Below, piece after piece: positions 1,798 through 64,000 of a stretch of 64,000 nt of DNA. The DNA comes from Candidatus Spongiisociaceae bacterium (GTDB lineage: Bacteria > Actinomycetota > Acidimicrobiia > Spongiisociales > Spongiisociaceae). The notes beneath the pieces are model-generated. The model saw nothing but the letters and a program-made list of their open reading frames with translations. It did not search any database and was not told the DNA's origin. The stretch lies in NCBI GenBank assembly GCA_965262915.1, contig OZ253564.1:1165597-1229596 (forward strand), written 5' to 3'. How positions within the stretch are numbered: the stretch's first letter is position 1; each line of letters starts with the position of its first letter. The position numbers and the translations under genes were made by a program.

Positions 1798-1807
1798 ACG
1801 GACCCTC

Positions 1808-3588: not shown

Positions 3589-3601
3589 GGTTGCTCCTTC
3601 C

Positions 3602-9229: not shown

Positions 9230-10762
9230 TCAGGTTCCGAGTACCCCCGGATTCATGATTCCGTTCGGATCGAGTTGCCGCTTCAGCGTCCGGACGTAGC
9301 CGGAGTAGCCCTCGGAGATGTGGCCTGCAAAGTCGTAGTAGCGACCGATCTGGAAGTTGACCGCGCCGTGGTCCTGGTAGATGGTGGCAACGTCGTTCCG
9401 GAAATCGGAGGCCACGCGGCGGGCCCCGTCGAAGCGGCCCCTGCGGCGGGTCACGCCTTTCACGAGGGCCTTGACCGCCATGCCCGTTGGTACCTTCCCG
9501 AGCATCTTCACGTTCCGGGGATTGAGGACGTACGCCCGACGGAGCGGATCCAGTTCGTCGGGCCACACGATGTTGGTCTCGACCAGTAGCTGTCCCTTGA
9601 CCGCACACATCAGGTGGTAGTAGTAGACGTGTTCCCGCTCGAAGGCGCCGGCATACTGCTCCGCCAGCTTGTCGACCTTCTCCATAAGGTCGAGGGTGGC
9701 CGAGAACGGAACGATCCCATGAACGGGCGCCCAGACCTCGCCGTTGGTCGATACCAGCGAAGCGGTGATACCGCCGACGAATCCCATGAACGGCTCGTCC
9801 CGCCACTTCCCGGCGAGTTCACCGGCCAATTCCCGGCCTCCGTGGTCACCAACGATGGACCGGATGGCGCCTGCGTTGGCGGAAATCACCTCCGCGCTCA
9901 GACCCTCGGTCGAGGCGTGCAGCACCTCGGCCGCTCCGGCGAGAAAGCCGTACCCGGCTCTGATCAGGCTGTCTAGACGCTTGCTGGACAGGTAGAAGAC
10001 CTCCGATGCCAGTCGTGACCGAGCTATGCCTGACATAGCGGTGAGGAGTTCCGAGAGGGAGGGGAAGTCGAAGCTCATGGACTCGTGTCCATGAGGCTGC
10101 TCCATCAACTCGAAGCTGGCTTCTGTCTTGACTCCGAATGCCCCCGAGTCCCCCACGAACATCCCGGTCAGGTCCGGCCCGTAGTACCGGAAGTGGCGCC
10201 ATCCGTCCACATGGGCGCCCGAGCCGGTCCTGATCACTTCCCCGCCGGGAGTGACCACCTCGAGGCCGAGAAGCGTGTCTCCCACCGTCCCGTACTTGCC
10301 GGACCCGTACCAGACGGCGTTGTTCGATATGCATCCCCCGAGGGTCGATCCTTCACCCGACAGCGGCCCCCAGAAGACCATACGCAGGCCCCTCTCGGAC
10401 AGGACGGAGTGGAGATCCTTCCAGGTGCAGCCGGTCTGGGCGGTGATCGACATGGAGTCCACGTCGATCTCCTGTATGGCGTTCATGCGGGATGTGTCGA
10501 GGAGGATCCCGCCTGCCACGGTCGGCGTGTAGCCGAGCGTATACGAGAGGCCGCCGCCCCTCGGATAGATTGGGGTTCCGTGCTCGTTGGCGAGGCGGAC
10601 GACGCCCGCCACCTCCCCGGTCGTGGCGGGCTGGACCACGAATTCGGCCGGCGCCACCTCCAGCCGGCTCAGGTCGGTGCCGTAGTACGCCAAGTCCCTC
10701 TTCGCGGTGGAGACGTGGGCGCCACCGACGACATCCCTGAGGTCTTGCTTCAACTGGTTCAC
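9230..10762 (-). CDS. FAD-linked oxidase (PCMH-type FAD-binding domain, GlcD-like)
   Basis: 510 aa with N-terminal FAD_binding_4-like region (PRGGGLSYTLG). Confidence 0.85.
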   Translation of the reverse strand: MNQLKQDLRDVVGGAHVSTAKRDLAYYGTDLSRLEVAPAEFVVQPATTGEVAGVVRLANEHGTPIYPRGGGLSYTLGYTPTVAGGILLDTSRMNAIQEIDVDSMSITAQTGCTWKDLHSVLSERGLRMVFWGPLSGEGSTLGGCISNNAVWYGSGKYGTVGDTLLGLEVVTPGGEVIRTGSGAHVDGWRHFRYYGPDLTGMFVGDSGAFGVKTEASFELMEQPHGHESMSFDFPSLSELLTAMSGIARSRLASEVFYLSSKRLDSLIRAGYGFLAGAAEVLHASTEGLSAEVISANAGAIRSIVGDHGGRELAGELAGKWRDEPFMGFVGGITASLVSTNGEVWAPVHGIVPFSATLDLMEKVDKLAEQYAGAFEREHVYYYHLMCAVKGQLLVETNIVWPDELDPLRRAYVLNPRNVKMLGKVPTGMAVKALVKGVTRRRGRFDGARRVASDFRNDVATIYQDHGAVNFQIGRYYDFAGHISEGYSGYVRTLKRQLDPNGIMNPGVLGT

Positions 10763-10820
10763 GGCGCCATCTCCGACCGCAGGCTAGGACCGGGCCAGAC
10801 TACAGCTCGACCAGGGCGTG

Positions 10821-11535
10821 TCACGCCCCGAGCATCTCGAATGACTCGGCCATGAGCGACTCGTCCCAGGACCCGATGGACTGGACATAGAAGCGGGTGA
10901 CGCCCACTCCGGCCAACCGGGCCATCTGATCGGCGACCTGGTGAGGGGTTCCATGGGGGAGTAGGCACTCCGCGAAGCCGGCCTCCAGGTCGTCGGCGTC
11001 CATCCTCCGGTAGGCGGCGCCCTGCTCGAGCCTTCTTCGGTAGCTCGCCCGGTCGGTTCCCACGATGACGGGTCCCATTGCGCTTACCCGAAGGGCTCCG
11101 GGTGGCCGCCCAGCTGCTAGGGCGGCCTCCCTCGCCCGCCTTATCCGGGCCTCGAGGTCGTCGATCGGGGCGAGAAGGGCAAGGTTGTACTCGTCGGCGT
11201 ACGTACCTGCCAGGTACGGTGACCTCCGGGGTCCGAATCCACCGACCATTAGTGGAAGCGCTCCGGTGGGGGACGGTTCGACCGGCTCCGCATCCAGGTA
11301 GTAGTGCTTGCCGGAGAATCCGGGAGGGCCCTTGCCGAACGCGGCCCTCAGATAACCCAGCGCCTCCTCCAGCCGCTCCCAGCGTTCGGGCCACGGTGGG
11401 TACGGGATGCCGAACCGGCGGTGTTCCTCATCGAGCCATCCCGTTCCCAGGCCCAGGGTGAAACGTCCCCCGGACATGTGATCGATGGTCACCGACTGCT
11501 TGGCCAGAACCGACGGGTGGCGGAAGTCATGTGTA
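10821..11535 (-). pseudogene. LLM-class (luciferase-like, F420/flavin-dependent) oxidoreductase, N-terminally truncated
   Basis: Homology starts at FRHPSVLAKQSVTIDHMSGGRFTLGLGTGW, which normally lies about 70-90 aa into the fold. An upstream in-frame stop precedes it. Confidence 0.65.
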
Positions 11536-21490: not shown

Positions 21491-22651
21491 TTCCTTAGTT
21501 TCTTTGCCATATGCTGCTAGAATATGCAGGTCAGTAGCAGTCAGTAGTGGGAGCAGCGTATGGAGAAGCAGCGGGGTCGTAAAGCAGTGGTTATCGAGCT
21601 GGATGAAGAGGAACGCCAGACGCTCGAGCGGTGGATACGGCGGCGTAGCACCGCACAAGGGTTAGCGATGCGGTCTCGTATCGTGCTGGGAGCGGCCGAA
21701 GGCCGCACCAATGTGGACATCGCAGCGGAGGTGGGCTGCAGCGGGGTTACGGTCTCGAAGTGGCGGAACCGTTTCGCCCGGCGCCGTCTCGACGGCCTCT
21801 ACGACAATCCCCGCCCCGGGCCGCCCCGCCGCATCGACGACGCCAAGGTAGAAGAAGTGGTGGTCAAGACCCTCGAGGAAACACCGAGAGACGCGACGCA
21901 CTGGTCGACCCGGTCCATGGCGAGGGCCGTCGGCCTGTCCCAGTCGTCGATCCTAAGAATATGGCGGGCGTTCGGTCTCAAGCCGCACCGGACCGAGCAT
22001 TTCAAGATATCTCCCGACCCCCAGTTCGTGGAAAAGGTCCGCGACCTGGCGGGTTTGTACCTGAACCCGCCCGACGCGGCGGTGGTGCTGTGTGTGGACC
22101 ACAAATCCCAGATACAGGCCCTCGACCGCACCGCGCCGATCCTGCCCCTGTTGCCCGGAACCCCCCAGCGGCGCACCCACGACTACCGCCGGTACGGCAC
22201 CACCAACCTCCACGCCGCGCTCGACACGGCCACCGGCCGGGTCATCACCTCCATGACACGACGCAACCGCACCCAAGAATTCCAGACGTTCCTAAACCTC
22301 ATCAACCGCGAAGTCCCACCAGAACTCGACGTCCATGTCGTGTTGGACAACGCGTCGCCCCACAAAACAGAGCCCATAGGGCGCTGGCTGCAACGCCATC
22401 CACGGTTCACGTTCCATTTCACACCCACCTACGCGTCGTGGATGAACCTCGTCGAGCGATGGTTCTCCGAACTCACCACCAAACAGATACGCCGAGGCAC
22501 CCACCGATCCGTAGCCGAACTCACCGACGCCATCAACCAATGGACCCAACACTGGAACCAAAACCCCAAACCCTTCATCTGGCACAAAACCGCCGACCAA
22601 ATCTTCGACAACCTCACCAACTATCTACAACGAATCCCCGAATCAGGACAC
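21482..22651 (+). mobile_element. IS630-family insertion sequence (1170 bp) with TA target duplication
   Basis: Perfect 12-bp TIRs GTGTCCTGATTC (21482-21493) and GAATCAGGACAC (22640-22651), flanked by TA at 21480-81 and 22652-53. Confidence 0.9.
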
Positions 22652-22654
22652 TAG
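21560..22654 (+). CDS. IS630-family transposase (HTH plus DDE domain)
   Basis: 364 aa. N-terminal HTH regions and DDE-type core (VVLCVDHKSQ..., VLDNASPHK..., ASWMNLVERWF). The stop TAG uses the flanking TA. Confidence 0.92.
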   Translation: MEKQRGRKAVVIELDEEERQTLERWIRRRSTAQGLAMRSRIVLGAAEGRTNVDIAAEVGCSGVTVSKWRNRFARRRLDGLYDNPRPGPPRRIDDAKVEEVVVKTLEETPRDATHWSTRSMARAVGLSQSSILRIWRAFGLKPHRTEHFKISPDPQFVEKVRDLAGLYLNPPDAAVVLCVDHKSQIQALDRTAPILPLLPGTPQRRTHDYRRYGTTNLHAALDTATGRVITSMTRRNRTQEFQTFLNLINREVPPELDVHVVLDNASPHKTEPIGRWLQRHPRFTFHFTPTYASWMNLVERWFSELTTKQIRRGTHRSVAELTDAINQWTQHWNQNPKPFIWHKTADQIFDNLTNYLQRIPESGH

Positions 22655-31554: not shown

Positions 31555-32481
31555 TTGATCTCACCCATATCGGTTGCAACGGTCGGAGTCACCGACCTCG
31601 AGGTCTCTGTCCACTTCTACCGGTCTCTCCTGGAATGGGAAGTTGTAGCCACAGGAGAGGTGGGAGGCCCTGATCTCGAGGCCCTGTGGCGTATGTCGCC
31701 GGGTCTGAGCGGACGGGCCACGGTAGTCGGCGCTCCGGGTCTGGAACTGGGGCGGGTTCGCCTCGTGGAATGGGACCGGCCCGGCGAGCTGGTTCGGGAT
31801 CCCGCCCGCAACCAGGACTTCGGCCACTACGCGCTGAACTTCCGCGTCGAGGACTTGCAGGACGTGTGGGAAGGGCTGGAGGACATAGGCGGTAGCGCTC
31901 GGTCGAGGCCTAACACGTGGGTGGTGGCCGAAGGCATACTCGCCCACGACTCGCTGTGCTACGACCCCGACGGCATCACCTGCGACGTGTTCGAGCTTCC
32001 CGACGAGGGCCCGCTCGGCCCGCTGGGTGATCGTGCCTCCAGCGAGCTGCAGACGATGGCCATCCGCCCCCGTGACATCGCTGCCTCGGCCGCCTTCTAT
32101 ACCGGGCTGGGCTACGAGACATGGTACGACCAGAAGACCGACGGGATCGAGGGATTCCTCCACCTGCCGGAGGGCACCACCCTCCACAACGTCAACTTCC
32201 ACATGCCTTCGCAAAGCCGCAACGGACGGGTCGAGTTGGCCGCTTACCTGGGCTTTCCGGGCGTCCCGACTTCGCATCGAGCCGTCCCGCCCAACATCGG
32301 GATCATGTCGATCACCTTCGAGAGCGACGACTTCGACCGGGACGCGGAACTGGCCGAGGAACTCGGAGCCACGATGGTCGCCCCGTCGCGCCAGGTCGAG
32401 GTCGGTCCCTACGGCGCCACCCGTGTAGCTACCTACCTGGGTCCGGACGGCGAGGCCATCGAACTGGTCGACATCGGATGA
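31555..32481 (+). CDS. Two-module VOC family protein (intact)
   Basis: 308 aa. TTG start after AAGGAGGG. ISPISVATVGVTDLEVSVHFYRSLL... plus a second module. Confidence 0.8.
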   Translation: MISPISVATVGVTDLEVSVHFYRSLLEWEVVATGEVGGPDLEALWRMSPGLSGRATVVGAPGLELGRVRLVEWDRPGELVRDPARNQDFGHYALNFRVEDLQDVWEGLEDIGGSARSRPNTWVVAEGILAHDSLCYDPDGITCDVFELPDEGPLGPLGDRASSELQTMAIRPRDIAASAAFYTGLGYETWYDQKTDGIEGFLHLPEGTTLHNVNFHMPSQSRNGRVELAAYLGFPGVPTSHRAVPPNIGIMSITFESDDFDRDAELAEELGATMVAPSRQVEVGPYGATRVATYLGPDGEAIELVDIG

Positions 32482-33050
32482 GCATCCCGGGCGTGCCCTT
32501 CGAGGAGATGGACCCGGCGATGCGCCGCCGGGCGGAGGTGGCAGCCGAGCTGACCGGTGACATACGTTTCATCCGGGCCATAGCGGCAGTTCCTCATATG
32601 GCCGACTTCTACTTCGGCAACTTCTACGAGCATGTGTTCTTCGGCGGCGACGTGCCGATCGTGACCAAGGAGTTGGTCCGCCTGCGCCTCTCGAACCTGC
32701 ACGGCTGCGCCTTCTGAAACCACACCAATCCCGTCTCGGCGAGACGGCAGGGAGTAACCGAAGAGCAGATCGCAGCAGTGGCCGGCGACATCTGGTCGGG
32801 TCCGTTCACCGAGGCGGAGAAGGCGGCGCTGGCCACCGTGCTTTCCAACGCAGTACAGGACGGGGTGGTTGACGAGGAACTGGCGACCGAACTCCGCCGT
32901 CACTACCCCGACGGGCAGATCATGGAGCTAGCGATGGCGATCGCCATACTGGTCGGGATGGCCCGCCTGCTGTTCGCATTCGATCTCGCCGACCGCGAGT
33001 TGGCATGTCCCGTCGGGCGCCTCTCCGATAATCGAAGCATAGGTGACTGA
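32478..33050 (+). CDS. AhpD/carboxymuconolactone decarboxylase-like protein with an in-frame TGA at the second Cys of the CxxC motif (candidate selenoprotein, otherwise pseudogene)
   Basis: ATGA overlap with the VOC stop. ...LRLSNLHGCAF[TGA 32715-17]NHTNP... continues in the same frame as ORF 32778..33050 (CMD-like C-terminal half). Combined length 190 codons fits the family. Confidence 0.6.
32731..32747 (+). other. Hairpin 13 nt downstream of the in-frame TGA (candidate bacterial SECIS)
   Basis: CCGTCTC-GGC-GAGACGG, a perfect 7-bp stem with a G-rich apical loop. Confidence 0.35.
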
Positions 33051-34119: not shown

Positions 34120-35094
34120 TTAGGGCCGCTGGCCAGCGAGACCTATCTCTTGACTGGTGCCCCCGGAGTCATCGAGATTGGCGATACGGGCTCTGGCTAG
34201 CTTCACGTAGTCGGGATCGATGTCATAACCAACGGCGCGGCGGTTGGCCGCCTTGGCCGCCACCAGGGTAGTTCCCGAGCCCATGAACGGATCTAGGACC
34301 AGGTCTCGCTCATAGGTGTAGAGCTGGATAAGGCGCGCCGGTAGCTCAACCGGGAATGGTGCCGGATGGCCGATCCTGCTGGCGTGGGCGGGGGGGATAT
34401 CCCAGATGTCGATCGTTGCCTCCATGAACTCGTCGCGGCCGATGGTCGACTCGTACGGCATCTCGTCGGCTCTACGCTGGGCAGCAGTACGGGCTCGGTT
34501 GAAGCGGCCCTTTCCGGCCACGATGATGCGTTCGGTAACGTCTCGCAGAACAGGGTTGGCCGGGCTGCGCCATGATCCCCATGCACATGAGCCGCCCGCG
34601 GCCTTGGCCTTTCTCCAGATGATCTCGCCGCGCAGGAGCAGCCCGAGTTGGTCTTGGAGTATGCCGATCACATCCGCGCTCAAGCTACGGTATGGCTTGC
34701 GGCCGAGGTTGGCGACGTTAATGGCCATCCGACCGCCTGGTTCGAGCACCCGCACGCACTCCCGGAACACGCCGCTCAGCAGCGCCAAGTATTCCACATA
34801 GGATTCGGGCACCTGCCGACCTGCTACTGCCTGCTCGTACACCTTCCCTACGAAGTAGGGCGGTGAGGTAACTACGAGGGCGACGCAGTTGTCGGGCAGC
34901 GCAGCCATCTCCCGACTGTCACCGTGGATCGGTCGAGGCTCGTCGAAACCCTCGGCGACCTTGACGCGATCGTCGCTCGAGAGTTCCGGTGGAGGGAAAC
35001 GGGCGTAGAACGCAGACGCGTCGTGGCCCTCGCGGCGGCCCGATCCGAAACTAGAGGTAGCTGTACTCCGGCGCGTTTGCCGTGCATGATCCAC
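34120..35094 (-). CDS. Beta-class DNA methyltransferase (N4-cytosine/N6-adenine; the SPPY motif favours m4C)
   Basis: Motif IV TSPPY precedes motif I DPFMGSGTT. GTG start after AAGGAGGAGG. Confidence 0.88.
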   Translation of the reverse strand: MDHARQTRRSTATSSFGSGRREGHDASAFYARFPPPELSSDDRVKVAEGFDEPRPIHGDSREMAALPDNCVALVVTSPPYFVGKVYEQAVAGRQVPESYVEYLALLSGVFRECVRVLEPGGRMAINVANLGRKPYRSLSADVIGILQDQLGLLLRGEIIWRKAKAAGGSCAWGSWRSPANPVLRDVTERIIVAGKGRFNRARTAAQRRADEMPYESTIGRDEFMEATIDIWDIPPAHASRIGHPAPFPVELPARLIQLYTYERDLVLDPFMGSGTTLVAAKAANRRAVGYDIDPDYVKLARARIANLDDSGGTSQEIGLAGQRP

Positions 35095-39739: not shown

Positions 39740-42112
39740 TCAACTACGGCGCGCCTGGGAGGTGCGTGTCGAGGCAGCGGTCTCATGGAGCGCCGGCGCA
39801 ACCTTTCTGAATAGCCGCCAAGCGCCGTCGACATCGAGGAGTCGGGCGCCTGCAGACTCGTACGAGAGCGTCTTGTCGAGCACCCAGTCCCATTTGTCTA
39901 TCTCCCGATTCTCGATCACCGCAGCCAACCCGGCGGTCGTAGGAGGTGGGTTCTCTAGGAACTGACCGATCACCTCTGCTACCTCGTCGGGGCCGGTCCC
40001 GCATATCCGGATGGCGGGGCCTTCGACGCCCACTTTGATTCCTGCCTGATGCAGGGCGATCATCGCGGTATACAGGGCGCGATCGCCGGTCCATGGAAAC
40101 AGCAGGACATCCCCGCCATCCCGGACCACGGTTCGCTTGCCCAGCCGGAATTGCTTGAACGCGGCCCGACCCTCGGCGAGCAGGTCCCTCGCGCCGGCGT
40201 CGAGCCATGTCGGGGTTTCGGTCGACGCGTAGACGGCCAGCATCTCCGCCCGAACCTCATTCGACACCGCGGGACCATGGCTGCCGGAGAAGAGGGGGGC
40301 GCCGCCAGTGGATTGTTCGAGCTCGACCACCCGGGCCGGTTTGTCGATGCCTGTCACCTTCCAGCGCTTCCCGGCGAAGATCATCAGCATCCCTTCCCGG
40401 AGGGGCTGGTAGATGGGGATCGTACCCAGAGTCCTACCACCGGTCACGACCCGCCATTCGTCGGCAGTGTGGAACGCGACATAGAAGCGGTAGTGGTTGA
40501 CGTGGCGTTCGCCGACCACCCCGTGCAGCAGCTGCCCGTCGGAGGATTGGATCAGAAGATCGTGGGACGCCATGGCTCGGAGCAACCGGACGAACCGAGC
40601 CTGGTCGACGAGGTGGAAGGGACCCGGCCCGCACAGGGCGCGATACAGGTCGGCCGCCCTCGCTCCGCCGTGCTGGGCGATGGTCGACATGATCTGCTGG
40701 ATCAGCGTCGAGTAATTGAATCCGGGATCGTCGGCGGATTCGAGCCACCTCTGGAGCATGAGGCGCACCATGGCGGTCGTCTGCACGACCCCGCAGCGCA
40801 GCCGGTCGACCGGGAGGGACCGCTCGTCGAGGGATGGTTCGCTGATGTAGAGGCGCAGCAGGGCCGGGTCGTCGCGGCGGCCCGATCTCCCCAGCCGCTG
40901 CCAGAGGGATGCGACCGATGGCGGCGGGCCTATCTGAGCCACGCTCGTTACCGAGCCGATGTCGATTCCCAGCTCGAGCGTGGACGTGCTCACCGCGGTC
41001 GCCGGTCGGGTTCGGTCCTTCATCTGCGCTTCGGCCGCCTCGCGCAGTTCCTTGGACAGGTTGCCGTGATGCGGCCAGAACTCGTTGGGGACCCGCTCCC
41101 GGTCACTTCGACGGGCGAGCAGGTCGGCGTAGGTCTCCACGTGATTGCGCGTGTTGGCGAACACCAGGTTGTCCTGGCCGCGCAGATGCCTGAACAGGTG
41201 CTCGGCTATCTCTGTCGCGTCCCCGTTCACCGTCTCTTCGACAGCTACTTCGCGGCCGGCCCGCTCGGCGTTTTCGGCCTGGTGGGGTGATACCGGTGGC
41301 GGGGTGGCCACGTACCCGCGCAGCTGCAGCATCAACCCCCGGCCGTCCGACTTCGACTCAACTATCAGGACCTGCTCCGGGTCGGTCGGGCGGAGAAACG
41401 CGGTGGCCTGATTCATGTCGCCGAGGGTTGCCGACAGCCCGATACGGGGTGGTCGTAGGCGGACCGCCAGCTCGACACGGTTCATCAGCGACTGCAGTTG
41501 GACTCCCCGTTGCGTGGCCAGGAAGGAGTGGAGCTCGTCGATCACGATGTAGCGCAACCCGACGAACAGCCTCGGCACGAGGGAGCCCCGGTTGACGAAG
41601 GTCGACTCCAAAGACTCGGGAGTTATGAGCAGTACACCGGACGGTCGGGCTATCAGGCTCTGCTTCGCCGCCGCCGAGACGTCCCCGTGCCAGCGATGCA
41701 CGGGGACATCCACCCGTTCGCAGATCCGTTCCAGGCGTTGATACTGATCGTTGATCAGGGCCTTCAGCGGCGAAAGGTACAGAGCCTGCACCCCGACGGA
41801 GGGTCCGGTCGCCGGTTCCGCCCACGGGTCGTAGGCCGTCCACGGATCTCGTTCCCCCGATGTCGGCTGGTCGGTGGCGCCGGCAAGGGTCGACAGGATA
41901 GGGAGGAAGGCGGCTTCGGTCTTTCCGGAGGCGGTCGCCGCGGCGATGATCAAATCACGGTCACCGTCAATGATCGGACCGATGGCGCGCTCCTGGGCGT
42001 CGTGCAGCGAGGTCCACCCCTGGTCGTATATCCAGCGCTGTATCCGAGGATGCAGCCGGGTGAACGCCGACGACGGGGCAGCTTCAGAGACGGAAGTGGG
42101 TGAGATGGTCAT
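39740..42112 (-). CDS. Lhr-like DEAD/DEAH-box helicase (third gene of the TerB-ATPase-helicase cassette; Shango SngC-like)
   Basis: Motif I AATASGKTEAAFLP, motif II VIDELHSF, motif III SATLG, long C-terminal extension. Start uncertain (ATG 42112 or GTG 42157); both overlap the upstream gene end. Confidence 0.85.
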   Translation of the reverse strand: MTISPTSVSEAAPSSAFTRLHPRIQRWIYDQGWTSLHDAQERAIGPIIDGDRDLIIAAATASGKTEAAFLPILSTLAGATDQPTSGERDPWTAYDPWAEPATGPSVGVQALYLSPLKALINDQYQRLERICERVDVPVHRWHGDVSAAAKQSLIARPSGVLLITPESLESTFVNRGSLVPRLFVGLRYIVIDELHSFLATQRGVQLQSLMNRVELAVRLRPPRIGLSATLGDMNQATAFLRPTDPEQVLIVESKSDGRGLMLQLRGYVATPPPVSPHQAENAERAGREVAVEETVNGDATEIAEHLFRHLRGQDNLVFANTRNHVETYADLLARRSDRERVPNEFWPHHGNLSKELREAAEAQMKDRTRPATAVSTSTLELGIDIGSVTSVAQIGPPPSVASLWQRLGRSGRRDDPALLRLYISEPSLDERSLPVDRLRCGVVQTTAMVRLMLQRWLESADDPGFNYSTLIQQIMSTIAQHGGARAADLYRALCGPGPFHLVDQARFVRLLRAMASHDLLIQSSDGQLLHGVVGERHVNHYRFYVAFHTADEWRVVTGGRTLGTIPIYQPLREGMLMIFAGKRWKVTGIDKPARVVELEQSTGGAPLFSGSHGPAVSNEVRAEMLAVYASTETPTWLDAGARDLLAEGRAAFKQFRLGKRTVVRDGGDVLLFPWTGDRALYTAMIALHQAGIKVGVEGPAIRICGTGPDEVAEVIGQFLENPPPTTAGLAAVIENREIDKWDWVLDKTLSYESAGARLLDVDGAWRLFRKVAPALHETAASTRTSQARRS

Positions 42113-43439
42113 CGTCGGGTGCTGGTCTCGGGATGGACGGCGGGGCGCCGTTGCCACTCTTGAGCGGTGCGAGGTCCGGATTGGTCTCCGCTTCGATCTC
42201 GACCCGGTCGATCAGATCGGACCAGTTCACGCCGGGGTTCTGGGCGAGCACCGAGAGGAGGTTCACGAACTCCTTGATGGTGGTCCGCGGTGTGCGGAAG
42301 TAGGCGTCACCCACACGCGACGCGCAATGGTCCATGAAGGCGGGCAAGGCTTCGTCGGGTACGAGGTAGGCGTCCGGATCGCCGCTCGCGAACACGTGCC
42401 GGAGTTTGGTGAGCAGCACGTAAATATCCTCGGGGGACAGGTTGGCGAGGCGCAATACCGGACCGGAGAAGTCAACGAGCCCCTTACGGGCGAAAGTGTT
42501 CTCGGCAAGACGTGACTGCAGGGCCGGGTACGAGTAGAGGCCGCGCCGGGTGTCTAACAGCATGTCCGGAGTGCCGCCGAACACGAACCCGAGCCCGGCA
42601 GCCGAACCCTGCAGGCAGTCGTTGAGGATGCGAAGCACCTGTTCGTAGTTGGAGTTGCGGGCCCTGGTATGCGACATCTTGTACAGATTCACCATCTCGT
42701 CCAGGCAGACGAGGAGGCCTGAGAACCCGGCCAGACGGACGAACCGCGCGAACAGCTTGAGATGGTCGTAGAAGCTCCGGTCGTCGATGATGGTGCGCAC
42801 TCCGAGCGCTTGCCGTGAGTCGGTGCGGGTCGAGAACTCGCCGCGTAGCCAGCGCACCACATCGGAGCGCAGTTGTTCGTTGCCGTTGTCATGGGCGCGC
42901 CAGTAGGCGGCGATTACTTCGGCGAAGTCGTATCCGCCGACCATCTCCTGGAGATCGGCAAGCCGTTCACGGATTACCGTCTCCGGGCTGATGTCTCGGG
43001 AGCGGGCGGCGCTCAGACCGGCCGTGATGAACCGTTCCACCACCGACGGCATCGCGCCGCCCTCCGGCTTCGCTCGCGTCGACAGGTTGCGCATCAGCTC
43101 GGCGTACAGACCGCGCGCCTGACCGCCGGTCGCGTAGAGGCGGCGTTCGGGTGACAGGTCGGCGTGGACGGTGACGAGCTTTCGTTCGAGCGCGATTGAA
43201 CGGACCAGGTTCAGGAAGAAGGACTTTCCGGCCCCGTACTCGCCGATCACGAGACGGATCGCCGAACCGCTGTCGGCGATCCGGTCGATGTCAGCGACCA
43301 CAGCGGCCACTTCGTCGGCGCGTCCGACCTGGATGTGTTGCTGGCCGACCCGTGGTACGACGCCGGCCCGCAAGGACTGGATGATCGCGTCGCGGTCCCG
43401 CGGGCGGATACGGCCGGTGGGACGGGTTAGGGATGTCAA
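42084..43439 (-). CDS. P-loop ATPase of the DUF2791/BREX BrxC-D-like type (Shango SngB-like)
   Basis: Walker A GEYGAGKSFF and Walker B-like LLVCLDEM. 4-nt overlap with the TerB gene stop. Confidence 0.75.
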   Translation of the reverse strand: MTSLTRPTGRIRPRDRDAIIQSLRAGVVPRVGQQHIQVGRADEVAAVVADIDRIADSGSAIRLVIGEYGAGKSFFLNLVRSIALERKLVTVHADLSPERRLYATGGQARGLYAELMRNLSTRAKPEGGAMPSVVERFITAGLSAARSRDISPETVIRERLADLQEMVGGYDFAEVIAAYWRAHDNGNEQLRSDVVRWLRGEFSTRTDSRQALGVRTIIDDRSFYDHLKLFARFVRLAGFSGLLVCLDEMVNLYKMSHTRARNSNYEQVLRILNDCLQGSAAGLGFVFGGTPDMLLDTRRGLYSYPALQSRLAENTFARKGLVDFSGPVLRLANLSPEDIYVLLTKLRHVFASGDPDAYLVPDEALPAFMDHCASRVGDAYFRTPRTTIKEFVNLLSVLAQNPGVNWSDLIDRVEIEAETNPDLAPLKSGNGAPPSIPRPAPDDDHLTHFRL

Positions 43440-45685
43440 GTCAGTTCCTCCACAGCGTAGGCATTGAGTACCACAGGGTTGTCACCCTCTACAAGAGGTT
43501 CGCCGCAGGCTTCCATTGCGGCTTCGTTGATCACGTCGATAGCGCCGTCGAGGAACGGCAATCCGAACGAATCGGCCATCTCCTCGGCGAAGCGGCGCTC
43601 CCACTCCGATCGGGAGGCGAGGGCCGCAAGGAGCCGCGAATGCGGCCCGTCAAGACCCTCGATCATCGATCTGGGTTCCGAGCCGGGCGTACGGGATTCC
43701 GTCTCCGGTGGTGGGTCGTCGTCTACGAAGATGTCGGTCAGCAGGTTCGACACACGGTCCGTCTCGGCCAGACGGGCTTGGATCTTTGCAGGGTCCAGGG
43801 CTACGGGACGGCGCCGCGCGGCAATCGTGCCGGGGTTGGGAAGTTCCCAACCAGTGTTGGGCGCCCCCTCTCGAACGGTGACCGGGCCGGTATCCCCCAG
43901 GTCGAGAGTATGGGCGCGGCTATACAGGTGGGATTCGTCGAGGCCCATATGTTCGAACAACCTTTCCAGGACGGCGATCTCTTTGTGATTGACGACCCCG
44001 TCGGCGGCTGCAAGCTCGATCAGAAGACTTCCGACTTTCGGCAGATCGTCGGGTTCCATCGCCTTTATCTTGCGTTTGATGCCGTACATACGGGGTTTTC
44101 GCACACCGAGCAATGCCAAGTGCGCTTGCAGCCTGGCCCGATCGGCGGTATCAAGCCCGGTGATCCCTTCCAATCGTTCAGCGAGAAACCGGTGTTCGAA
44201 GGAGTTGATCTTCCCGTCCGCTGCGGCCACTATCGCACTCAGATACACCAGCGACAGGGCGGCGCCGTACAAAGTGGGTTTCGCCCGCCCACCCTCGGGA
44301 AGCGAGAACAACACCGCATGCGTACCCGGACTTGGAGTAGGCGCACCGAAACGGACGTCGGGTTCGATTCCCACCTCGACGTTGGCGAGCATGGACGCCA
44401 GAGCAGAGGCGTCGGTCTTGGTGAGTTTCGAGGTGTGGCCGGGTGACCACATTTCCACCAGTTCATCGAGGAAAACCACCGCCCGCGGCCTACCGGCCAG
44501 TTGTTCCGATGTCCAGGCCCGGAGACCCTTGAGGATCGGACCACCGTGCTCGACAAGCAACACGTCGGGTAACAGCCCGACCGCGGCCGGGGTCCCGACC
44601 CAATCAGGGTGGCGCCCGATCAAGCGGCTGTAGGCATCGAGTTCATTGTCGCATTGCTTGGCCAACTCGTTCAGCTCGGTGATCAGCGCCGGTTCGAGCG
44701 TTACGTCAGGAATCCTGTCGAGGGTGATGAACACGCCTCCGTCGAATCCGGAGGATGTGGCCCGGTACGAGAGCCTGATCTTCCTCGCCGGTCGTGGCAC
44801 CCGGAGACCCGGTCCGAACCGCGCCCTGTAACGTATGCCGAACAGTTCGTCGAACTCGGCGGCAGCGCGCTTGGCCGGTGTTCGTAGCCGCCCCTCGGGA
44901 TGGTGCCGGAGGTAACTGAGGGCCCATTCGGCCGGGATGGCGGACCGTTCCGAAACATACTTGCCGATGCAGACTCGAACCGCGGCCGGTACGCCGAGCT
45001 TTGCGCGACCGGAATCCCATGGGACCGGTTGTGCGTCAGTGTTCACCGACAGCACGCCTTCCACGAAATCCAGCAGTTGACCCGCGCTCCCAGCGAATGA
45101 ATGCTCCTCGCGGTAGATGCCTAGGAGACGTTCGATCTCGGCCAGGATGATCGCGACCTCCGGAAGGTGGAGGTCGGCGCCAAGGTCGGCGAACAGACGC
45201 CGTTCGAGCCCGTAGAAGAACAAGAACACGTAACCGATGTAGGCGGACCTGTCCTGGCGACCCCCGGCCAGCCACTTGAGATAGGCGGCCCGAACGCGCG
45301 GGTTGGCTCGTCCGTACGACGGGTCGTGATGCATGGAAGCTCCGGTGCGATCCGCGCTTTTCCAGTTGACCGGAAGCCGAGGATCGATGAGGCTTGGCTC
45401 GGGTCCGCGTCCGTTCGCCGCCAGGGCGCCGTTGCCGATGTAGACCATCCCGCCTTCGATCGAACGGCCGGCCACGTCGATCTTCCCACCGGGTGGGACC
45501 CAGGTTGCCGGACCTCGCTTGGATCGCTTCCCTGACCACCGAAGCGGGCCGCTGTCCCACCAGTAAGGCGTCGGCGGGCCGCGCTTCGTGTTCCGTTCGG
45601 GACGGTTTGTCCCACGCTCGGGCCGGCTCACAACCCCCCTTTCAGGTACCGCCTGTCGGCTAGAGGGGAAGTGCCCGATCGGCAT
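43436..45685 (-). CDS. TerB-N / TerB / TerB-C domain protein (Shango SngA-like)
   Basis: N-terminal WVPPGGKIDVAGRSIEGGMVYIGNG...EPSLIDPRLPV (TerB-N-like). Central AIVAAADGKINSFEHRFL (TerB-like). C-terminal LDGPHSRLLAAL...FLDGAIDVINEAA (TerB-C-like). Start at ATG 45685 or 45706; the ORF-track start at 46087 overlaps vapBC and is rejected. Confidence 0.75.
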   Translation of the reverse strand: MPIGHFPSSRQAVPERGVVSRPERGTNRPERNTKRGPPTPYWWDSGPLRWSGKRSKRGPATWVPPGGKIDVAGRSIEGGMVYIGNGALAANGRGPEPSLIDPRLPVNWKSADRTGASMHHDPSYGRANPRVRAAYLKWLAGGRQDRSAYIGYVFLFFYGLERRLFADLGADLHLPEVAIILAEIERLLGIYREEHSFAGSAGQLLDFVEGVLSVNTDAQPVPWDSGRAKLGVPAAVRVCIGKYVSERSAIPAEWALSYLRHHPEGRLRTPAKRAAAEFDELFGIRYRARFGPGLRVPRPARKIRLSYRATSSGFDGGVFITLDRIPDVTLEPALITELNELAKQCDNELDAYSRLIGRHPDWVGTPAAVGLLPDVLLVEHGGPILKGLRAWTSEQLAGRPRAVVFLDELVEMWSPGHTSKLTKTDASALASMLANVEVGIEPDVRFGAPTPSPGTHAVLFSLPEGGRAKPTLYGAALSLVYLSAIVAAADGKINSFEHRFLAERLEGITGLDTADRARLQAHLALLGVRKPRMYGIKRKIKAMEPDDLPKVGSLLIELAAADGVVNHKEIAVLERLFEHMGLDESHLYSRAHTLDLGDTGPVTVREGAPNTGWELPNPGTIAARRRPVALDPAKIQARLAETDRVSNLLTDIFVDDDPPPETESRTPGSEPRSMIEGLDGPHSRLLAALASRSEWERRFAEEMADSFGLPFLDGAIDVINEAAMEACGEPLVEGDNPVVLNAYAVEELT

Positions 45686-45753
45686 GCCGCCGTGACAACC
45701 GACCATTATGGTACAAATCCGATGACTCTGAAGCCTTGGTGTATACTGAACCA

Positions 45754-45978
45754 ATGCGGCGTATACAGCTATACATGGACGATGACCTCGATGAAGCGCT
45801 ATCCGGCGAGGCGGCTCGTCTGGGCGTCTCCCGTTCGGAGCTCGTGCGAGACGCAGTGAGGGTCTCGCTACGCGGCTTTCTCGACGCTGATCGCGATGCG
45901 GTCGACGATCTGATCGGCTGGATCGACGTGGAGCCGGACGACGATATCGATTCGGTGGTCTACGGGCTCGAAGAGTGA
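45754..45978 (+). CDS. vapB: Ribbon-helix-helix (CopG/VapB-type) antitoxin
   Basis: MRRIQLYMDDDLDEALSGEAARLGVSRSELVRDAV is an RHH fold pattern. GTGA overlap with vapC. TATACT -10-like hexamer upstream. Confidence 0.75.
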   Translation: MRRIQLYMDDDLDEALSGEAARLGVSRSELVRDAVRVSLRGFLDADRDAVDDLIGWIDVEPDDDIDSVVYGLEE

Positions 45979-46376
45979 GGTTCGCCGATACATCGTTCTG
46001 GGTCGGCCTCCAAGTCGCGCGAGACCGCCGACATGCCGACGCAGTCGAGCTATGGCAGCGTGATCGCAGGCCCGTGCGGACTTCCAACCTCGTCCTCGGC
46101 GAGACATGGACGTGGCTACGGCGAAGAGCCGGTCACCCGGCAGCCGTGCGCTTTCTGGAAACGCTCGCGCAGTCCAGGCGCGTATCGGTGGTGACAGTGG
46201 ACGAGACCATAGATCAGCAGGCGTGGGTATGGCTTCGCCGCCACGACGAGCGGAAGTACTCGTATGTGGATGCCACGAGCTTCGCGATCATGCGCCGCGA
46301 GCGCATCACCGAAGCGTTGGCGTTCGACGGTGATTTCACCGCGGCGGGCTTCGTCGAGGCCCGACCTCACCGATGA
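45975..46376 (+). CDS. vapC: PIN-domain toxin VapC
   Basis: FADTSFWV...NLVLGETW...YVDATSFAIM...ALAFDGDF carries the conserved acidic PIN residues. Confidence 0.85.
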   Translation: MRFADTSFWVGLQVARDRRHADAVELWQRDRRPVRTSNLVLGETWTWLRRRAGHPAAVRFLETLAQSRRVSVVTVDETIDQQAWVWLRRHDERKYSYVDATSFAIMRRERITEALAFDGDFTAAGFVEARPHR

Positions 46377-58429: not shown

Positions 58430-58943
58430 GGAACCAGATCGCACAGGAAGCGTTGACTCCCTGAACGGAAGGGCCCGGACTTAGAAGTCGGCTCCGGCCA
58501 AGCCGAGGCTGGATCCTGCCCGTCCATCCCGTCGCTGTTCCGGCTGTTCCTGGGTTTGTTCCTGGGCCTGCTTAGGCGTCTACCTCAAAGGGCCGTAGCG
58601 CCTTGAGGAAAAGAACCGGCGACGGACCACCCTTCCGCTGGGGGCTCGTGTCGGTGGTGTGGTCTCGACGACGGGCGACCTAATGGTGGTCATCCAATAT
58701 CGGCTCTTGCTCGTGTCGCTGTGGGTGCTGGTGGACAAAGACGCGCCGGCGGCGGATCGGGAGTGGTGGTCGATGGTGTCCCGCATCCGGCGAGCCCGCG
58801 GGTAGAGCGGCGTTGTGGGCCCGGGAGCCTCGGGCCGTTTCTCCCCACATAACGGCCCCTCCTACCTACTGGCGTGCTCCCGACCTCTGAAAGGACTCGG
58901 GGGGCTTGACCGGCCGCCGACAGCGGTTACCCGCCCGATGGTC

Positions 58944-59111
58944 TCACCAGCCTCGGCGGTTCCGTTTGGGTGGGTGTCGGAGGGGGGAGTGGAGGTGGCA
59001 GTGGTCGGTCGGGTTGTAGATGGACAGGCGCGCCGTGCAGCTGTCGGTGGCGCAGTAGCGGCCGGGGGGATATGTGGGTGGTGGGCGCCCTGGGGGGCGG
59101 ACTCTGCTCAT
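58944..59111 (-). CDS. Small Cys/His-rich (zinc-ribbon-like) ORF, below the ORF-track cutoff
   Basis: MSRVRPPGRPPPTYPPGRYCATDSCTARLSIYNPTDHCHLHSPLRHPPKRNRRGW. Divergent from the HTH-like ORF at 59226. Confidence 0.3.
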   Translation of the reverse strand: MSRVRPPGRPPPTYPPGRYCATDSCTARLSIYNPTDHCHLHSPLRHPPKRNRRGW

Positions 59112-59225
59112 AGGGGGTTCACGGTACTCGTTTTGTTTAGCTGTGACCGAGGGCTATCGGTTCGACGTTGCATAGCTGGTTGAAGCTGTCCCGGTGTACA
59201 CCGGCGCTGACCTGGGGTTTTGTAG

Positions 59226-59440
59226 GTTGAATCTTGCCGATCCGCCCTCGTTGGGGAATCGCTAGCGTCGTTCCGGGAAATCGAGGCGGGCTGCGTCCAT
59301 CTGTGCGGCTGCCGTCGGGCTAGTTCGGTGTTGGACTCGACGAGGCGGGCCGCGTTCGAGCTGGGCGGCTGGACCGTCCGGGGCCTCGCCAAGGCGATTA
59401 ACGTGTCACCGGCCCTGATTCAGAAACGGGCCGGACGATG
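59226..59440 (+). CDS. Small conserved Cys-rich/HTH ORF, second paralog
   Basis: ...SFREIEAGCVHLCGCRRASSVLDSTRRAAFELGGWTVRGLAKAINVSPALIQKRAGR. A 27-nt block is identical to the copy at 55294..55539, and substitutions elsewhere are mainly synonymous. Confidence 0.35.
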
Positions 59441-60415
59441 AAGGCCTGGTGGTTTCGCCTGGTCCCGCCCGGTGTCCTGGATCGGTGATAATACGGGCCG
59501 TCTCCGGCAGGGCACCAGGTGCGGCCGATGCCCGGAAACGCGGGAGTTCGTCTACTAGCCCGGTCTCCGCTGACCATCGTTGCCGGGAACAGGACGATGA
59601 CGACCCCACCCCAGCCCTACCCCAACCCCCTCTCATGATCGGATGGTCGGGTACCCAATTCGGGAGGGAGGGGTGAACCCGTGCAAACTGGGGTGGGCAG
59701 GCTGTCTAGGTCGTATTCGGACCCTCCCGGGCCTTAGATCGGCTTGTAGACCTTTGGGTCGTGTTGGTTAGCGTTCCGAACACGGTTTCTGGGGTGTTAC
59801 CGCCCGAAACCCCCTCGAGGAGTTTCGCCGCCACGGCGTGCTGAGGGAACCGGTTACCGGGCTGTTCGCCGGGTGGCGACGGATCACCTTTCCGCTGGAG
59901 GGACTCAGGGGGAGTTAGGGCTGGTCGGGGTGTTTCAGGACAGCCAGCGCCGCAGCTCCCCGTCCAGGTTCTCGCCGGCGTGGGGGATGACCCCGGATGC
60001 GGTGTGTAGCTGTCCGTCGGCGTCTACGGTGACGGCCGGGGTCGGGCCGCCGTCTAGGACTTCGATGTGTCCGTTTTGGTTGATGTGGGACAGCACGCTT
60101 ACAGCCACGTTCGTCCCTTTCGGGTGCCGGTGTGTTTGAGGGTACCGGGACGGTGTGACAGACGGCCGCCGGAGACGTTCAGCACGGCGGGTTCTTGGTC
60201 ATCGGACTGGTTCGGAGGGTTGATGGTCTTCGCCGAGGCTGGGGTTGTTGGTTCTACTGGCTTGGGTGCCGTTTCTGTGGCGGGCTGTTGAACAGTTTAT
60301 GGCCGCCGAGCTACTGTCCCGGAACGCTCGACGCGGCCTGGCTGTTCGGTGTCGGTGGCAACCGGCTGACACTTTCGTTGAATGTCGCGTAGGTGGGCAG
60401 GGCTCGGTGCGTATC

Positions 60416-61207
60416 ATGGTGATCATGAGGTTCCGTTACTTGGCCGGAGTGGCCATTGTCGGTGTTGTATTCGCCTTGGCGGGGTGCGGAGGTGGTTCCG
60501 ACGAACAGGCCGAGTCCGTTGAGCCGGTTGTGACTTCGGCGGCTGCAACGCCGATAGCGACAACCTCAGCCACGACATCCGTCGGCACCGCGGCACCAGC
60601 GTCGACTGTGGTGGAGGATACTCCCCCTGCGTCCACCACGACCGGCCTGGTTTCGACGACCGTGACGTCGGTGGTGGAGGAAGCGGTGACCACTACGGTT
60701 GCAGAGACGACCATGGTTGCAGAGACGACCATGGTTGCAGAGACGACCGTGGTTGCAGAGACGACCGTGGTTGCGGAGTCTGCTGTGGTCGTCCCCGAGG
60801 GTCCCCGTGTTCCGGCTGTCACTCTTGAGCTGGACGACGGCACCGTCTTCGTTTCGACCGAAGCTACCAGGCCTGTTCTCTACCTGTTCTGGGCTGAGTG
60901 GTGACCGGCATGTCGGCGGGAGTTGCCTGTCGTCGATTATTTGGCCGGTGAATATGCGGGCCGGGTGGATGTGGTCGCGGTCGCCTGGGCTTCGACGTAT
61001 GAGAAGACGGCCTCGGCTGCCCGTGGTTACCTCAGGTCGGGGGCTACCCGCTGGTTGCTGGACGAGGACGAGTCGGTGTTTGCTGCCTTCGAAGTGGGGT
61101 ACCAGCCGGTTGGGGTGTTTGTGGTGGACGGTGTGGAGGTGAACCGCTGGTTGGGGACTCTTCCCGAACAGGAACTGCGCGACGCCTTCGACAGCGCGAC
61201 CGCTTGA
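60416..61207 (+). CDS. TlpA/ResA-like thioredoxin-fold lipoprotein with an in-frame TGA at the first Cys of the CxxC motif (candidate selenoprotein, otherwise pseudogene)
   Basis: Signal plus lipobox (VFALAGCGG), Thr/Val-rich linker, then ...PVLYLFWAEW[TGA 60902-04]PACRRELP... continuing in frame as ORF 60923..61207 (thioredoxin-fold remainder). Confidence 0.6.
60698..60787. repeat. 18-bp tandem repeat (4 near-identical units plus 1 diverged) encoding VAETT(M/V)
   Basis: GTTGCAGAGACGACC(A/G)TG repeated from 60698, inside the linker of the TlpA-like lipoprotein. Confidence 0.8.
60914..60932 (+). other. Hairpin 9 nt downstream of the in-frame TGA (candidate bacterial SECIS)
   Basis: CGGCGGG-AGTTG-CCTGTCG, a 7-bp stem (two G-U pairs in RNA) with a 5-nt loop containing GU. 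Confidence 0.3.

Positions 61208-62989: not shown

Positions 62990-64000
<1,011 letters not shown>

Follow-up and report, generated by a model that had tools for sequence, protein, structure and literature searches.

The window (the whole 64,000-nt stretch of DNA analysed here, from a Candidatus Spongiisociaceae bacterium) harbors two open reading frames, 60245..60904 and 60923..61207, which lie in one shared frame with their starts 678 nt apart. The sequence and the ORF layout bore out the first-pass annotation, according to which the only break between the two ORFs is the TGA at 60902-60904, in the context LYLFWAEW-TGA-PACRRELPVVD. Translation through this codon gives a single protein of 263–267 amino acids. 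The complete gene occupies 60407..61207 on the forward strand, in a single frame with the internal TGA read through and the terminal TGA stop (61205-61207) included. GTG 60407, ATG 60416, and ATG 60425 are the candidate starts, and the exact start is uncertain; in the nearest relative, the gene call for the N-terminal fragment (P0057) begins at the equivalent of 60407. Nearly all relatives in the databases are represented by an N-terminal fragment ending in FWAEW and a C-terminal fragment of 80–94 amino acids. All of the ∼60 protein clusters retrieved for the clade are such fragments, the same split is seen in several other 50%-identity clusters, and the NCBI name for the fragments is 'hypothetical protein.' Split in this way by gene callers, the protein in effect escapes functional surveys.

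The N-terminus of the predicted product contains a lipoprotein signal peptide (60416..60487, forward strand) with the lipobox L-A-G-C, in which MVIMRFRYLAGVAIVGVVFALAG is directly followed by the lipobox cysteine (TGC 60485-60487). The product had been described as a lipoprotein from the window alone, and this proved right, as orthologues share an L/V-A/G-A/G-C lipobox followed by GGGS or GS (the call in L018 is doubtful) and the lipobox is also found in the Cys-containing homologues P0044 and P0140-P0149. Such a signal would export and anchor the domain outside the cytoplasm. Export is probably by the Sec pathway, since no twin-arginine motif was found in the signal peptide. The signal peptide is followed by a low-complexity linker rich in Thr, Val, Ala, Glu, and Pro (60488..60778, forward strand), in which TRF detected an 18-bp tandem repeat of 4.6 copies (60697-60778). 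The length of the linker varies from ∼14 to ∼134 amino acids among orthologues, and in one paralogue (copy C) it is much longer and mostly Thr-rich.

The remainder of the gene (60779..61204, forward strand) encodes a thioredoxin-fold domain of the TlpA/ResA/DsbF type. Pfam analysis of the read-through product, with Cys substituted for the residue encoded by the TGA, gave scores above the cutoff for Redoxin (35.3 bits, cutoff 26.6), AhpC-TSA (28.1, cutoff 26), and Thioredoxin (31.4, cutoff 23.5), and the curated threshold of the TlpA/ResA/CcmG/DsbE-like class (cd02966; Pfam Redoxin/AhpC-TSA) was passed. Among solved structures, the best match over the full domain was Mycobacterium tuberculosis DsbF (3ios; E 6.5e-9). 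The fold was evaluated on the Cys homologue P0044, which is 47–49% identical to the window protein and whose AF2 model has a mean pLDDT of 69, with values of 70–92 within the domain. The model, with its first elements predicted as strands at residues 53-55, 61-63, and 71-77 and a helix at 81-96, showed the features that mark TlpA/ResA proteins, namely an N-terminal β-hairpin, a central insert, and an active site located where helix 1 begins. It matched ResA, DsbF, DsbE, Etrx1/2, CcmG, and TlpA with target-normalised TM scores of 0.65–0.86, the best Foldseek matches being ResA, DsbF, DsbE, Etrx, and CcmG (E ∼1e-11, target-normalised TM 0.77–0.86). The assignment to a TlpA/thioredoxin-like family made in the first-pass annotation is thus in agreement with the Pfam scores, the DsbF match, and the P0044 model. 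A placement within CcmG or ResA proper was rejected, as the NCBIfam equivalog/subfamily scores were far under the cutoff (ResA 32 vs. 170, DsbE 27 vs. 123, TlpA 29 vs. 230) and the ccm operon of the relatives encodes its own Cys-type CcmG-like protein (FFASWCLQC). The NCBIfam selenoprotein models likewise gave no match (WAxxUGC_long, NF041054, 23.3 bits vs. 300; TsoB, NF045694, 14 vs. 805); these families require U-G-C, whereas the motif here is U-P-x-C.

To follow the in-frame TGA across species, a set of 21 species genomes of Acidimicrobiia, mostly sponge symbionts of Ca. Spongiisociaceae, was compared along with four paralogous copies. TGA was present at the identical codon in the loci of all 21 species carrying the gene and in the four paralogues, within the shared context FWAEW-TGA-P-(A/S/T)-C-(R/Q)-RE. 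All orthologues have C directly 3′ of the UGA; copy A of the paralogues has G. The codon for the second cysteine of the motif (TGT 60911..60913, forward strand) was TGT or TGC in 20 of the 20 sequences tallied; this resolving Cys was lost (C to R) only in a degenerate copy, L013, an extra copy in another genome. The comparison of TGA with TGC or TGT at this position in orthologues, suggested in the first-pass annotation, showed that more distant homologues carry Cys where the family has TGA: P0044 reads FWAEWCPVC, and P0140-P0149 read CPVC, CPTC, CHTC, CGIC, CHSC, or CSVC. In L029, the only Cys homologue checked at the DNA level, the corresponding codon is TGC. The Sec/Cys pair that is looked for in a bacterial selenoprotein gene is therefore present in this family. 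The median dN/dS was 0.22 upstream (44 codons) and 0.29 downstream of the TGA at a dS of ∼0.9–1.1, so that the UGA is conserved together with coding constraint in one frame on both sides. Both values signify purifying selection, which for the C-terminal half thus acts in the frame of the N-terminal one. Codons +1 and +5 to +8 past the TGA showed almost no synonymous variation.

The stretch immediately downstream of the TGA folds into a hairpin resembling a bacterial SECIS (bSECIS) element (60914..60932, forward strand), and the 7-bp stem, 5-nt loop, and 9-nt distance from the TGA were found to be as originally described. A spacer of 9 nt (60905-60913) is followed by the 5′ arm CGGCGGG (60914-60920), the loop AGTTG (60921-60925), and the 3′ arm CCTGTCG (60926-60932). 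Two of the seven pairs are G-U, and the distance from the UGA to the loop is 16 nt. The bSECISearch model expects a UGA-to-loop distance of 16–37 nt, a loop of 3–14 nt, and a G within the first two loop positions, and the hairpin has this geometry. The 19-mer of the window has a folding energy of −8.8 kcal/mol (z −2.9; 1 of 200 shuffles as good), and in a 59-nt context the z score is −2.2 (8 of 200 shuffles as good). The signal in a single sequence is modestly unusual, and it is the comparison across genomes that raises it over chance. The cells of the helix were paired in 99.4% of cases, as against 32–83% after sliding the partner columns, and three of the seven pairs (pairs 2, 3, and 4) showed compensatory changes on both sides. 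Some of these pair changes need coupled non-synonymous changes, as in L017 and L018, where Q replaces R and A replaces V, and in paralogue copy A, whose stem reads CGGAGGG/CCUUCCG. The loop is AGUUG in 22 of the 24 aligned copies and AGUUA in the other two (L001 and L005); the bases A-G-U-U never vary, and so loop position 2 is always G and the base after it always U. Folding energies range from −8.8 to −12.2 kcal/mol across copies. The hairpin is thus kept with compensatory changes in the TGA-containing copies and is absent from the Cys homologue L029, which encodes a nearly identical peptide (CRKELPVVD) with other codons and forms no hairpin (−2.1 kcal/mol). No Rfam family matched the hairpin region, even with E values of up to 10 allowed; bacterial SECIS elements are poorly represented in Rfam. 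The A-G-U-U loop start was also observed in a second, unrelated candidate, the SLH-thioredoxin L010, for which a metagenome scan retrieved no relatives.

Taken by itself, the window shows only an in-frame stop, which could have arisen by nonsense mutation of a pseudogene or by an error of sequencing or assembly, and the extra copy L013 in another genome is truly degenerate. The same TGA is, however, present in independent assemblies of 21 species at a dS of ∼1, with a dN/dS of 0.2–0.3 on both sides, and in the paralogues as well. As judged from these comparative sequence data, a pseudogene or error is already refuted and retains next to no probability. It could also be argued that the UGA is a real stop, producing a lipoprotein stub ending in FWAEW and a separate 94-amino-acid protein from TTG 60923, or serving as a point of regulatory attenuation. 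Public gene calls are all split there, the codon TTG 60923 is conserved (TTG or TTA), and it is immediately preceded by a GGGAG run. The six codons between TGA and TTG, the one for the resolving Cys among them, nevertheless vary at the third position (TGT/TGC, CGA/CGG) but keep their amino acids, and hence these codons are translated in the frame of the TGA. In two genomes, TTG is replaced by TTA, which is not a start codon, and the location of TTG within the hairpin loop accounts for its conservation. The GGGAG run abuts the TTG without a spacer, which is a poor Shine-Dalgarno geometry. On the predicted fold, neither half would form a complete thioredoxin domain, as the split falls between strand β1 and the active-site helix, and the C-terminal half would be left without an export signal. 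Genuine termination at this codon is hence considered highly improbable.

The remaining alternatives concern the identity of the inserted residue, since conservation shows hairpin-assisted translation of the UGA and does not by itself identify the amino acid. The hairpin may promote reading of the UGA by a suppressor tRNA, either near-cognate or dedicated, so that the active site would hold Cys or some other residue. The decoding tRNA could be a UCA-anticodon tRNA charged with Cys and delivered by a SelB-like factor, or a near-cognate Trp or Cys tRNA favoured by a weak UGA-C stop; UGA followed by C, as found in all orthologues, is a weak termination context. TGC or TGT would be the simpler means of encoding Cys, and related lineages do use it; the retention of a costly UGA with its hairpin in 21 species and several paralogues argues for a residue other than Cys. 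Trp or Arg in place of the nucleophile would inactivate a CxxC oxidoreductase, and the 16-nt position and the small loop with its invariant G-U fit a SelB-type bacterial SECIS. Recoding to a residue other than Sec is therefore regarded as very unlikely. A particular form of it, in which hosts free of the selenium pathway insert a non-Sec residue such as Cys by means of the AGUU-loop hairpin, a UCA-anticodon tRNA, and a SelB-like factor, is likewise given only a very slim chance; if true, these surface redox lipoproteins would be a family that retains selenium-independent SECIS-directed recoding. The conservation of the TGA in 21 of 21 species, the covariation of the hairpin, and the Cys homologues together support the proposal that the leading Cys of WCxxC is replaced by Sec. 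The TGA almost certainly encodes an active-site Sec of a thioredoxin-like redox protein anchored to the membrane, and the probability that 60407/60416..61207 is one SelB/SECIS-decoded UxxC selenoprotein gene, with its product exposed outside the cytoplasmic membrane, is estimated to be about 0.88.

According to the selenoprotein reading, a ribosome meeting the UGA at 60902-60904 would encounter the intra-coding hairpin at 60914-60932, which would recruit SelB carrying Sec-tRNA(Sec), and Sec would be inserted in place of termination, as by the established bacterial SECIS mechanism. The lipoprotein signal peptide would direct export of the product, Cys24 would receive the lipid, and the long, flexible Thr/Val/Ala-rich linker would tether the domain to the cytoplasmic membrane on its outer side. 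In the active site W-U-P-A-C, Sec would be the attacking nucleophile, and together with the resolving Cys at position +3 it would form a selenenylsulfide. With this pair of residues, the protein would act as an extracytoplasmic thiol-disulfide (selenol-sulfide) oxidoreductase. Its most likely role would be that of a reductant of surface or secreted clients, recycled by a membrane electron carrier of the CcdA/DsbD type.

UxxC proteins of the thioredoxin fold, including those of the cd02966/TlpA-like and Redoxin types, are an established class of bacterial selenoproteins, and signal-peptide-bearing Dsb-like and TlpA-like UxxC families have already been listed (PMC13188914, Table 1; PMC1088965 for the class). 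The expectation that an extracytoplasmic version would be unusual hence holds only in part, as such signal-peptide-bearing families are already catalogued (PMC13188914, Table 1), and the gene adds to the thioredoxin-fold UxxC selenoproteins described so far, TlpA-like ones included. With these it shares Sec in place of the N-terminal Cys of CxxC, a TlpA/Redoxin-type fold, the existence of Cys homologues, and, just 3′ of the UGA, a stem-loop whose small apical loop contains a G (PMC13188914, Table 1; PMC1088965). The agreement with the published 'thiol-disulfide isomerase-like' (cd02966, UxxC) and 'Redoxin family' (PF08534, UxxC) selenoproteins, represented by MGB1650493.1 and HEU0032618.1, is one of domain class and motif (PMC13188914). 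Four features were not found in the literature on the published UxxC families: a lipoprotein anchor, a Thr-rich linker of variable length, triplication in tandem, and a host among the sponge-symbiont Acidimicrobiia.

Among Cys enzymes, M. tuberculosis DsbF (Rv1677, 3ios) and DsbE/MPT53 (1lu4) are likewise actinobacterial and extracytoplasmic with a TlpA/ResA-like fold, and both are among the top structural matches. The active site of DsbF, FWAPWCPTCQGEAPVV, aligns with FWAEW-U-PACRRELPVV, and the orthologues L017 and L018, which read UPTCQRE, were likened to the two mycobacterial proteins. DsbF and DsbE differ in having Cys, in sharing only ∼30% identity over the aligned residues, and in being without a long linker. 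They are described as oxidases rather than reductases, and thus the direction of catalysis is not transferable to the selenoprotein. Bacillus subtilis ResA and Escherichia coli CcmG/DsbE, which are thioredoxins of cytochrome c maturation, and Bradyrhizobium TlpA share with it the N-terminal β-hairpin, the thioredoxin core, the central helical insert, and the membrane-tethered, outward-facing location; they differ in that the selenoprotein falls short of their NCBIfam equivalog cutoffs and is encoded outside the ccm operon. Streptococcus pneumoniae Etrx1 and Etrx2 (4hqs, 2yp6), also retrieved as structural matches, are lipid-anchored TlpA-like thioredoxins on the surface of a single-membrane bacterium and serve as CcdA-fed reductants for an extracellular methionine sulfoxide reductase. 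By analogy, they are plausible functional counterparts of the selenoprotein, from which they differ in being Cys enzymes; neither msrAB nor ccdA was seen adjoining the selenoprotein gene. The SelB-binding bSECIS elements of E. coli fdhF and fdnG are also intra-coding hairpins just 3′ of the UGA, with a G-U in an apical loop that lies ∼20 nt from the UGA. The candidate hairpin is unrelated to them in sequence; it is without the bulged U in the stem, and its loop is AGUUG.

The Sec reading implies a full Sec machinery in these symbionts. No tRNA-Sec was detected in the window by ARAGORN or Rfam, and ARAGORN on the 21 loci also yielded none, the only tRNAs being tRNA-Gln and tRNA-Pro in L017. Pfam did not identify SelA, SelB, or SelD among 30 of the larger ORFs of the window. 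Searches by tblastn with E. coli SelA/B/D in 479 kb, and with Arthrobacter pYA7-1a SelA/B/D in 557 kb, of the window and related loci gave no match. The absence of a sel gene within ∼557 kb is what chance would predict, as this is a small sample of genomes of 3–5 Mb. In a protein search with Arthrobacter SelA, the best 120 of 8000 matches were all from Micrococcaceae. No report of selenium use or selenocysteine in Spongiisociaceae was found in the literature; in another order of the class Acidimicrobiia, selA, selB, selC, and selD are reported to be universal (bioRxiv 10.64898/2026.04.03.716425). TGA is the most frequent ordinary stop, ending 31 of 56 coding-like ORFs of the window and 14 of 21 genes tallied, the selenoprotein gene included. 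It follows that the genetic code is not reassigned, and a genome-wide reassignment of UGA is ruled out. A companion candidate at 32478..33050, treated as a parallel case in the first-pass annotation, was unsupported: homologues of this CMD/AhpD-like ORF do not keep TGA 32715 (Arg in the nearest, Cys in others), no split homologues were found, and the downstream fold was not significant. This candidate lends no independent support to Sec decoding.

The family described here is a well-supported addition to the selenoproteins of sponge-symbiont Acidimicrobiia (Ca. Spongiisociaceae), and the invariant A-G-U-U loop start is a possible lineage-specific SECIS signature for mining the remaining selenoproteome. 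The selenoprotein gene is triplicated in tandem in some genomes. This triplication, together with the lipid anchor, the outward-facing location, and the long tether, suggests that a symbiont living in animal tissue carries out selenium-based redox chemistry on its cell surface. In the window, the gene is unlinked to ccm; in most relatives it is located 1.5–3 kb from the ccmABCDEFH operon on the opposite strand, a proximity that hints at a link to cytochrome c or cuproprotein maturation.

The gene at 60416-61207 (+) is a genuine recoded gene that very probably encodes a selenoprotein (probability about 0.88). The ORFs 60245..60904 and 60923..61207 have one frame in common, in which the sole interruption is TGA 60902-60904 (...RPVLYLFWAEW[TGA]PACRRELPVVDYLAGEY...), the same layout as that described in the first-pass annotation. 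Translation probably begins at GTG 60407 or ATG 60416. The encoded N-terminal segment, MVIMRFRYLAGVAIVGVVFALAG followed by the lipobox Cys (60485-60487), corresponds to a lipoprotein signal peptide, and a linker rich in Thr, Val, Ala, and Glu separates the lipobox from the thioredoxin domain. The linker contains an 18-bp tandem repeat (60697-60778; 4.6 copies, 96% matches) encoding (V/M)VAETT units. Since linker length ranges from ~14 to ~134 aa among the orthologues, the length of the tether is probably set by repeat slippage.

A search of 5.8 billion proteins showed that the relatives are almost all fragments, namely, 55 C-terminal pieces of 79-107 aa, with the start mostly called at the Leu codon just past the motif, and seven N-terminal pieces, every one ending in ...FWAEW. 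The sole full-length protein was the Cys homologue P0044 (49% identical), with the motif FWAEWCPVC. The matched NCBI records annotate the window-type gene as two hypothetical proteins. Scanning one genome per GTDB species identified 21 carriers of the gene, all Acidimicrobiia, of which the majority were named Ca. Spongiisociaceae or Spongiisocius or were sponge metagenome bins. When these orthologues were compared for TGC/TGT versus TGA, the codon was TGA in 21/21 genomes, in the context FWAEW[TGA]P[A/S/T]C[R/Q]RE. Upstream of the TGA (44 codons), the median pairwise dN/dS was 0.22, and in the downstream part it was 0.29, with a dS of ~1. TGA is the commonest ordinary stop in the window (31/56 coding-like ORFs) and is also the terminal stop in 14 of 21 tallied genes, the window gene included; therefore, these genomes do not generally read UGA as sense.

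The downstream hairpin was located exactly where it had been claimed, at 60914-60932 (CGGCGGG, 60914-60920; loop AGTTG, 60921-60925; CCTGTCG, 60926-60932) after a 9-nt spacer (60905-60913). Taken alone, the window hairpin is stable yet only modestly unusual (-8.8 kcal/mol, z -2.9; z -2.2 in the 59-nt context). Its conservation was borne out across 24 copies, in which the 7-bp helix was paired in 99.4% of cells as compared with 32-83% when the partner columns were slid, and three pairs were changed on both sides (G-C to A-U, A-U to G-C, and C-G to A-U). Several of these substitutions entail paired amino-acid replacements (R to Q along with V to A), a pattern difficult to account for unless the RNA itself is under selection. 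Of the 24 loops, 22 were AGUUG and two (loci L001 and L005) were AGUUA, the first four bases being invariant. Past the TGA, synonymous variation was almost nil at codons +1 and +5 to +8, with adjacent codons varying freely. In the one Cys homologue read at the DNA level (locus L029), the codon is TGC and the next peptide, CRKELPVVD, is nearly identical with other codons used; the homologous 19 nt were unfolded (-2.1 kcal/mol), and therefore the hairpin tracks the UGA and not the protein sequence. The geometry, in which a small loop with G then U at positions 2-3 is separated from the UGA by 16 nt, fits the bSECISearch model of the bacterial SECIS (bSECIS). The conserved hairpin would help to decode the UGA, and its AGUU loop start is usable as a lineage-specific SECIS signature.

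The read-through product, with Cys substituted for the TGA, scored above the Pfam thresholds of Redoxin, Thioredoxin, and AhpC-TSA. Its scores fell below the NCBIfam equivalog cutoffs for ResA, DsbE, TlpA, and StoA and below those of all curated NCBIfam selenoprotein families. Among solved structures, the best whole-domain match was Mycobacterium tuberculosis DsbF (FWAPWCPTCQGEAPVV; E 6.5e-9). The AlphaFold model of full-length P0044 (mean pLDDT 69; 70-92 across the domain) showed an N-terminal beta-hairpin, a thioredoxin core, and a central helical insert, as in the TlpA/ResA/CcmG class, and its top Foldseek matches were ResA, DsbF, DsbE, the pneumococcal surface lipoproteins Etrx1/2, StoA, CcmG, and TlpA. 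These results, together with the lipobox, agree with the TlpA/thioredoxin-like lipoprotein identity suggested at first reading, and the product is predicted to be a TlpA/DsbF-like oxidoreductase, anchored by lipid and facing outward, whose active site is U-P-A-C (U, selenocysteine).

Exhaustive searching with P0044 as query recovered full-length Cys forms with the motifs CPVC, CPTC, CHTC, CGIC, CHSC, and CSVC, and those reaching the N-terminus were all lipoproteins with Thr-rich linkers. Several more split-type 50%-identity clusters were also found, with N-terminal fragments ending in FWAEW and C-terminal fragments starting with MPVVD. Sec and Cys forms thus alternate inside one family, as is usual in selenoproteins. 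Among predicted bacterial selenoproteins, UxxC thioredoxin-fold proteins form the dominant class, and the window gene, likened to them by class and motif, has the same structural class and way of working. It represents no new mechanism; its interest rests on the host lineage, the uniform mis-annotation in matched records, the lipoprotein architecture, the tandem expansion, and the SECIS signature. Three tandem paralogues are present in a Ca. Spongiisociaceae contig (OZ241841.1; L018 8421-11385, same as L026 and L027) and two in locus L017 (about 10280-11500), each with a lipobox of its own, the AGUUG hairpin, and TGA at the corresponding codon. The motif is U-G-A-C in copy A, and the linker of copy C is far longer and mostly Thr-rich. 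An extra, degenerate second copy on a 2138-bp contig (L013, APA_bin_98) keeps the TGA and hairpin, with the resolving Cys replaced by Arg and stop codons upstream, and is probably a decaying duplicate.

Neither the window nor the 557 kb of related DNA searched contained selA, selB, selD, or tRNA-Sec, as expected from so small a sample. Universal Sec machinery has been reported in Actinomarinales, another order of the same class (10.64898/2026.04.03.716425). An actinobacterial SelA from the Arthrobacter sp. YA7-1 plasmid pYA7-1a was used as query, and the best 120 of 8000 matches were all close Micrococcaceae relatives. The plasmid, typed as conjugative, carries a complete fdh, selD, tRNA-Sec, selA, and selB module (NZ_CP110115.1 23387-40589) adjoined by a Tn3 transposase, making Sec decoding a mobile trait in this actinobacterium.

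A different secreted protein (locus L010, 2529-3701), with three SLH-like repeats and a thioredoxin-like domain, reads WFFAPW[TGA]PAC (TGA at 3366), followed 27 nt after the TGA by a 7-bp candidate hairpin (loop AGUUC, -10.1 kcal/mol). Relatives were not found among related loci or JGI metagenomes. This protein may be a second selenoprotein sharing the loop signature and offers an independent hint of Sec decoding. The CMD/AhpD-like gene at 32478-33050, proposed as a parallel candidate, did not hold up as it reads GCAF[TGA]NH at TGA 32715-32717, a position occupied by Arg (GCAFRNR) in the nearest homologue, P0064 (full length, 88% identical), and by Cys (GCAFCN) in more distant ones; the downstream fold was not significant (z -0.44). 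TGA 32715 lends no support to Sec decoding, and rather than encoding a selenoprotein, the gene seems to have lost its second Cys in this lineage or to be a pseudogene.

In the relatives, trpD precedes the selenoprotein gene, and 1.5-3 kb away the opposite strand carries a ccmABCDEFH-TPR-CcmG-like operon, which encodes its own Cys-type thioredoxin (FFASWCLQC). The window gene flanks showed no similarity to these trpD...ccm loci; hence, the gene appears to be relocated in the window genome, and its link to ccm is suggestive at most. Its neighbors are an alpha/beta hydrolase, a luciferase-like monooxygenase, and an IS3-family element (62990-63384 and onwards), in which the HTH_Tnp_1 ORF (62990-63262) is followed by an ALIL frameshifting pseudoknot (63268-63384; Rfam RF01497, 104.8 bits). 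The ~2 kb upstream (58430-60400) contain no ORF of coding-like composition and no similarity to trpD, which precedes the orthologues, and may be decayed or non-coding sequence.

Elsewhere in the window, a DDE_3 transposase (21560-22654) and a DNA methylase (N6_N4_Mtase; 34120-35094) are encoded. At 39740-46087 (-), an 883-aa protein with TerB_N, TerB, and TerB_C adjoins an 805-aa DEAD/DEAH-box helicase, and the two may form a stress or defense gene pair. Two Methane/Phenol/Alkene hydroxylase (soluble di-iron monooxygenase) subunit genes at 467-3645 (-) point to a capacity for hydrocarbon or phenol oxidation, unexpected in a sponge-symbiont actinobacterium.
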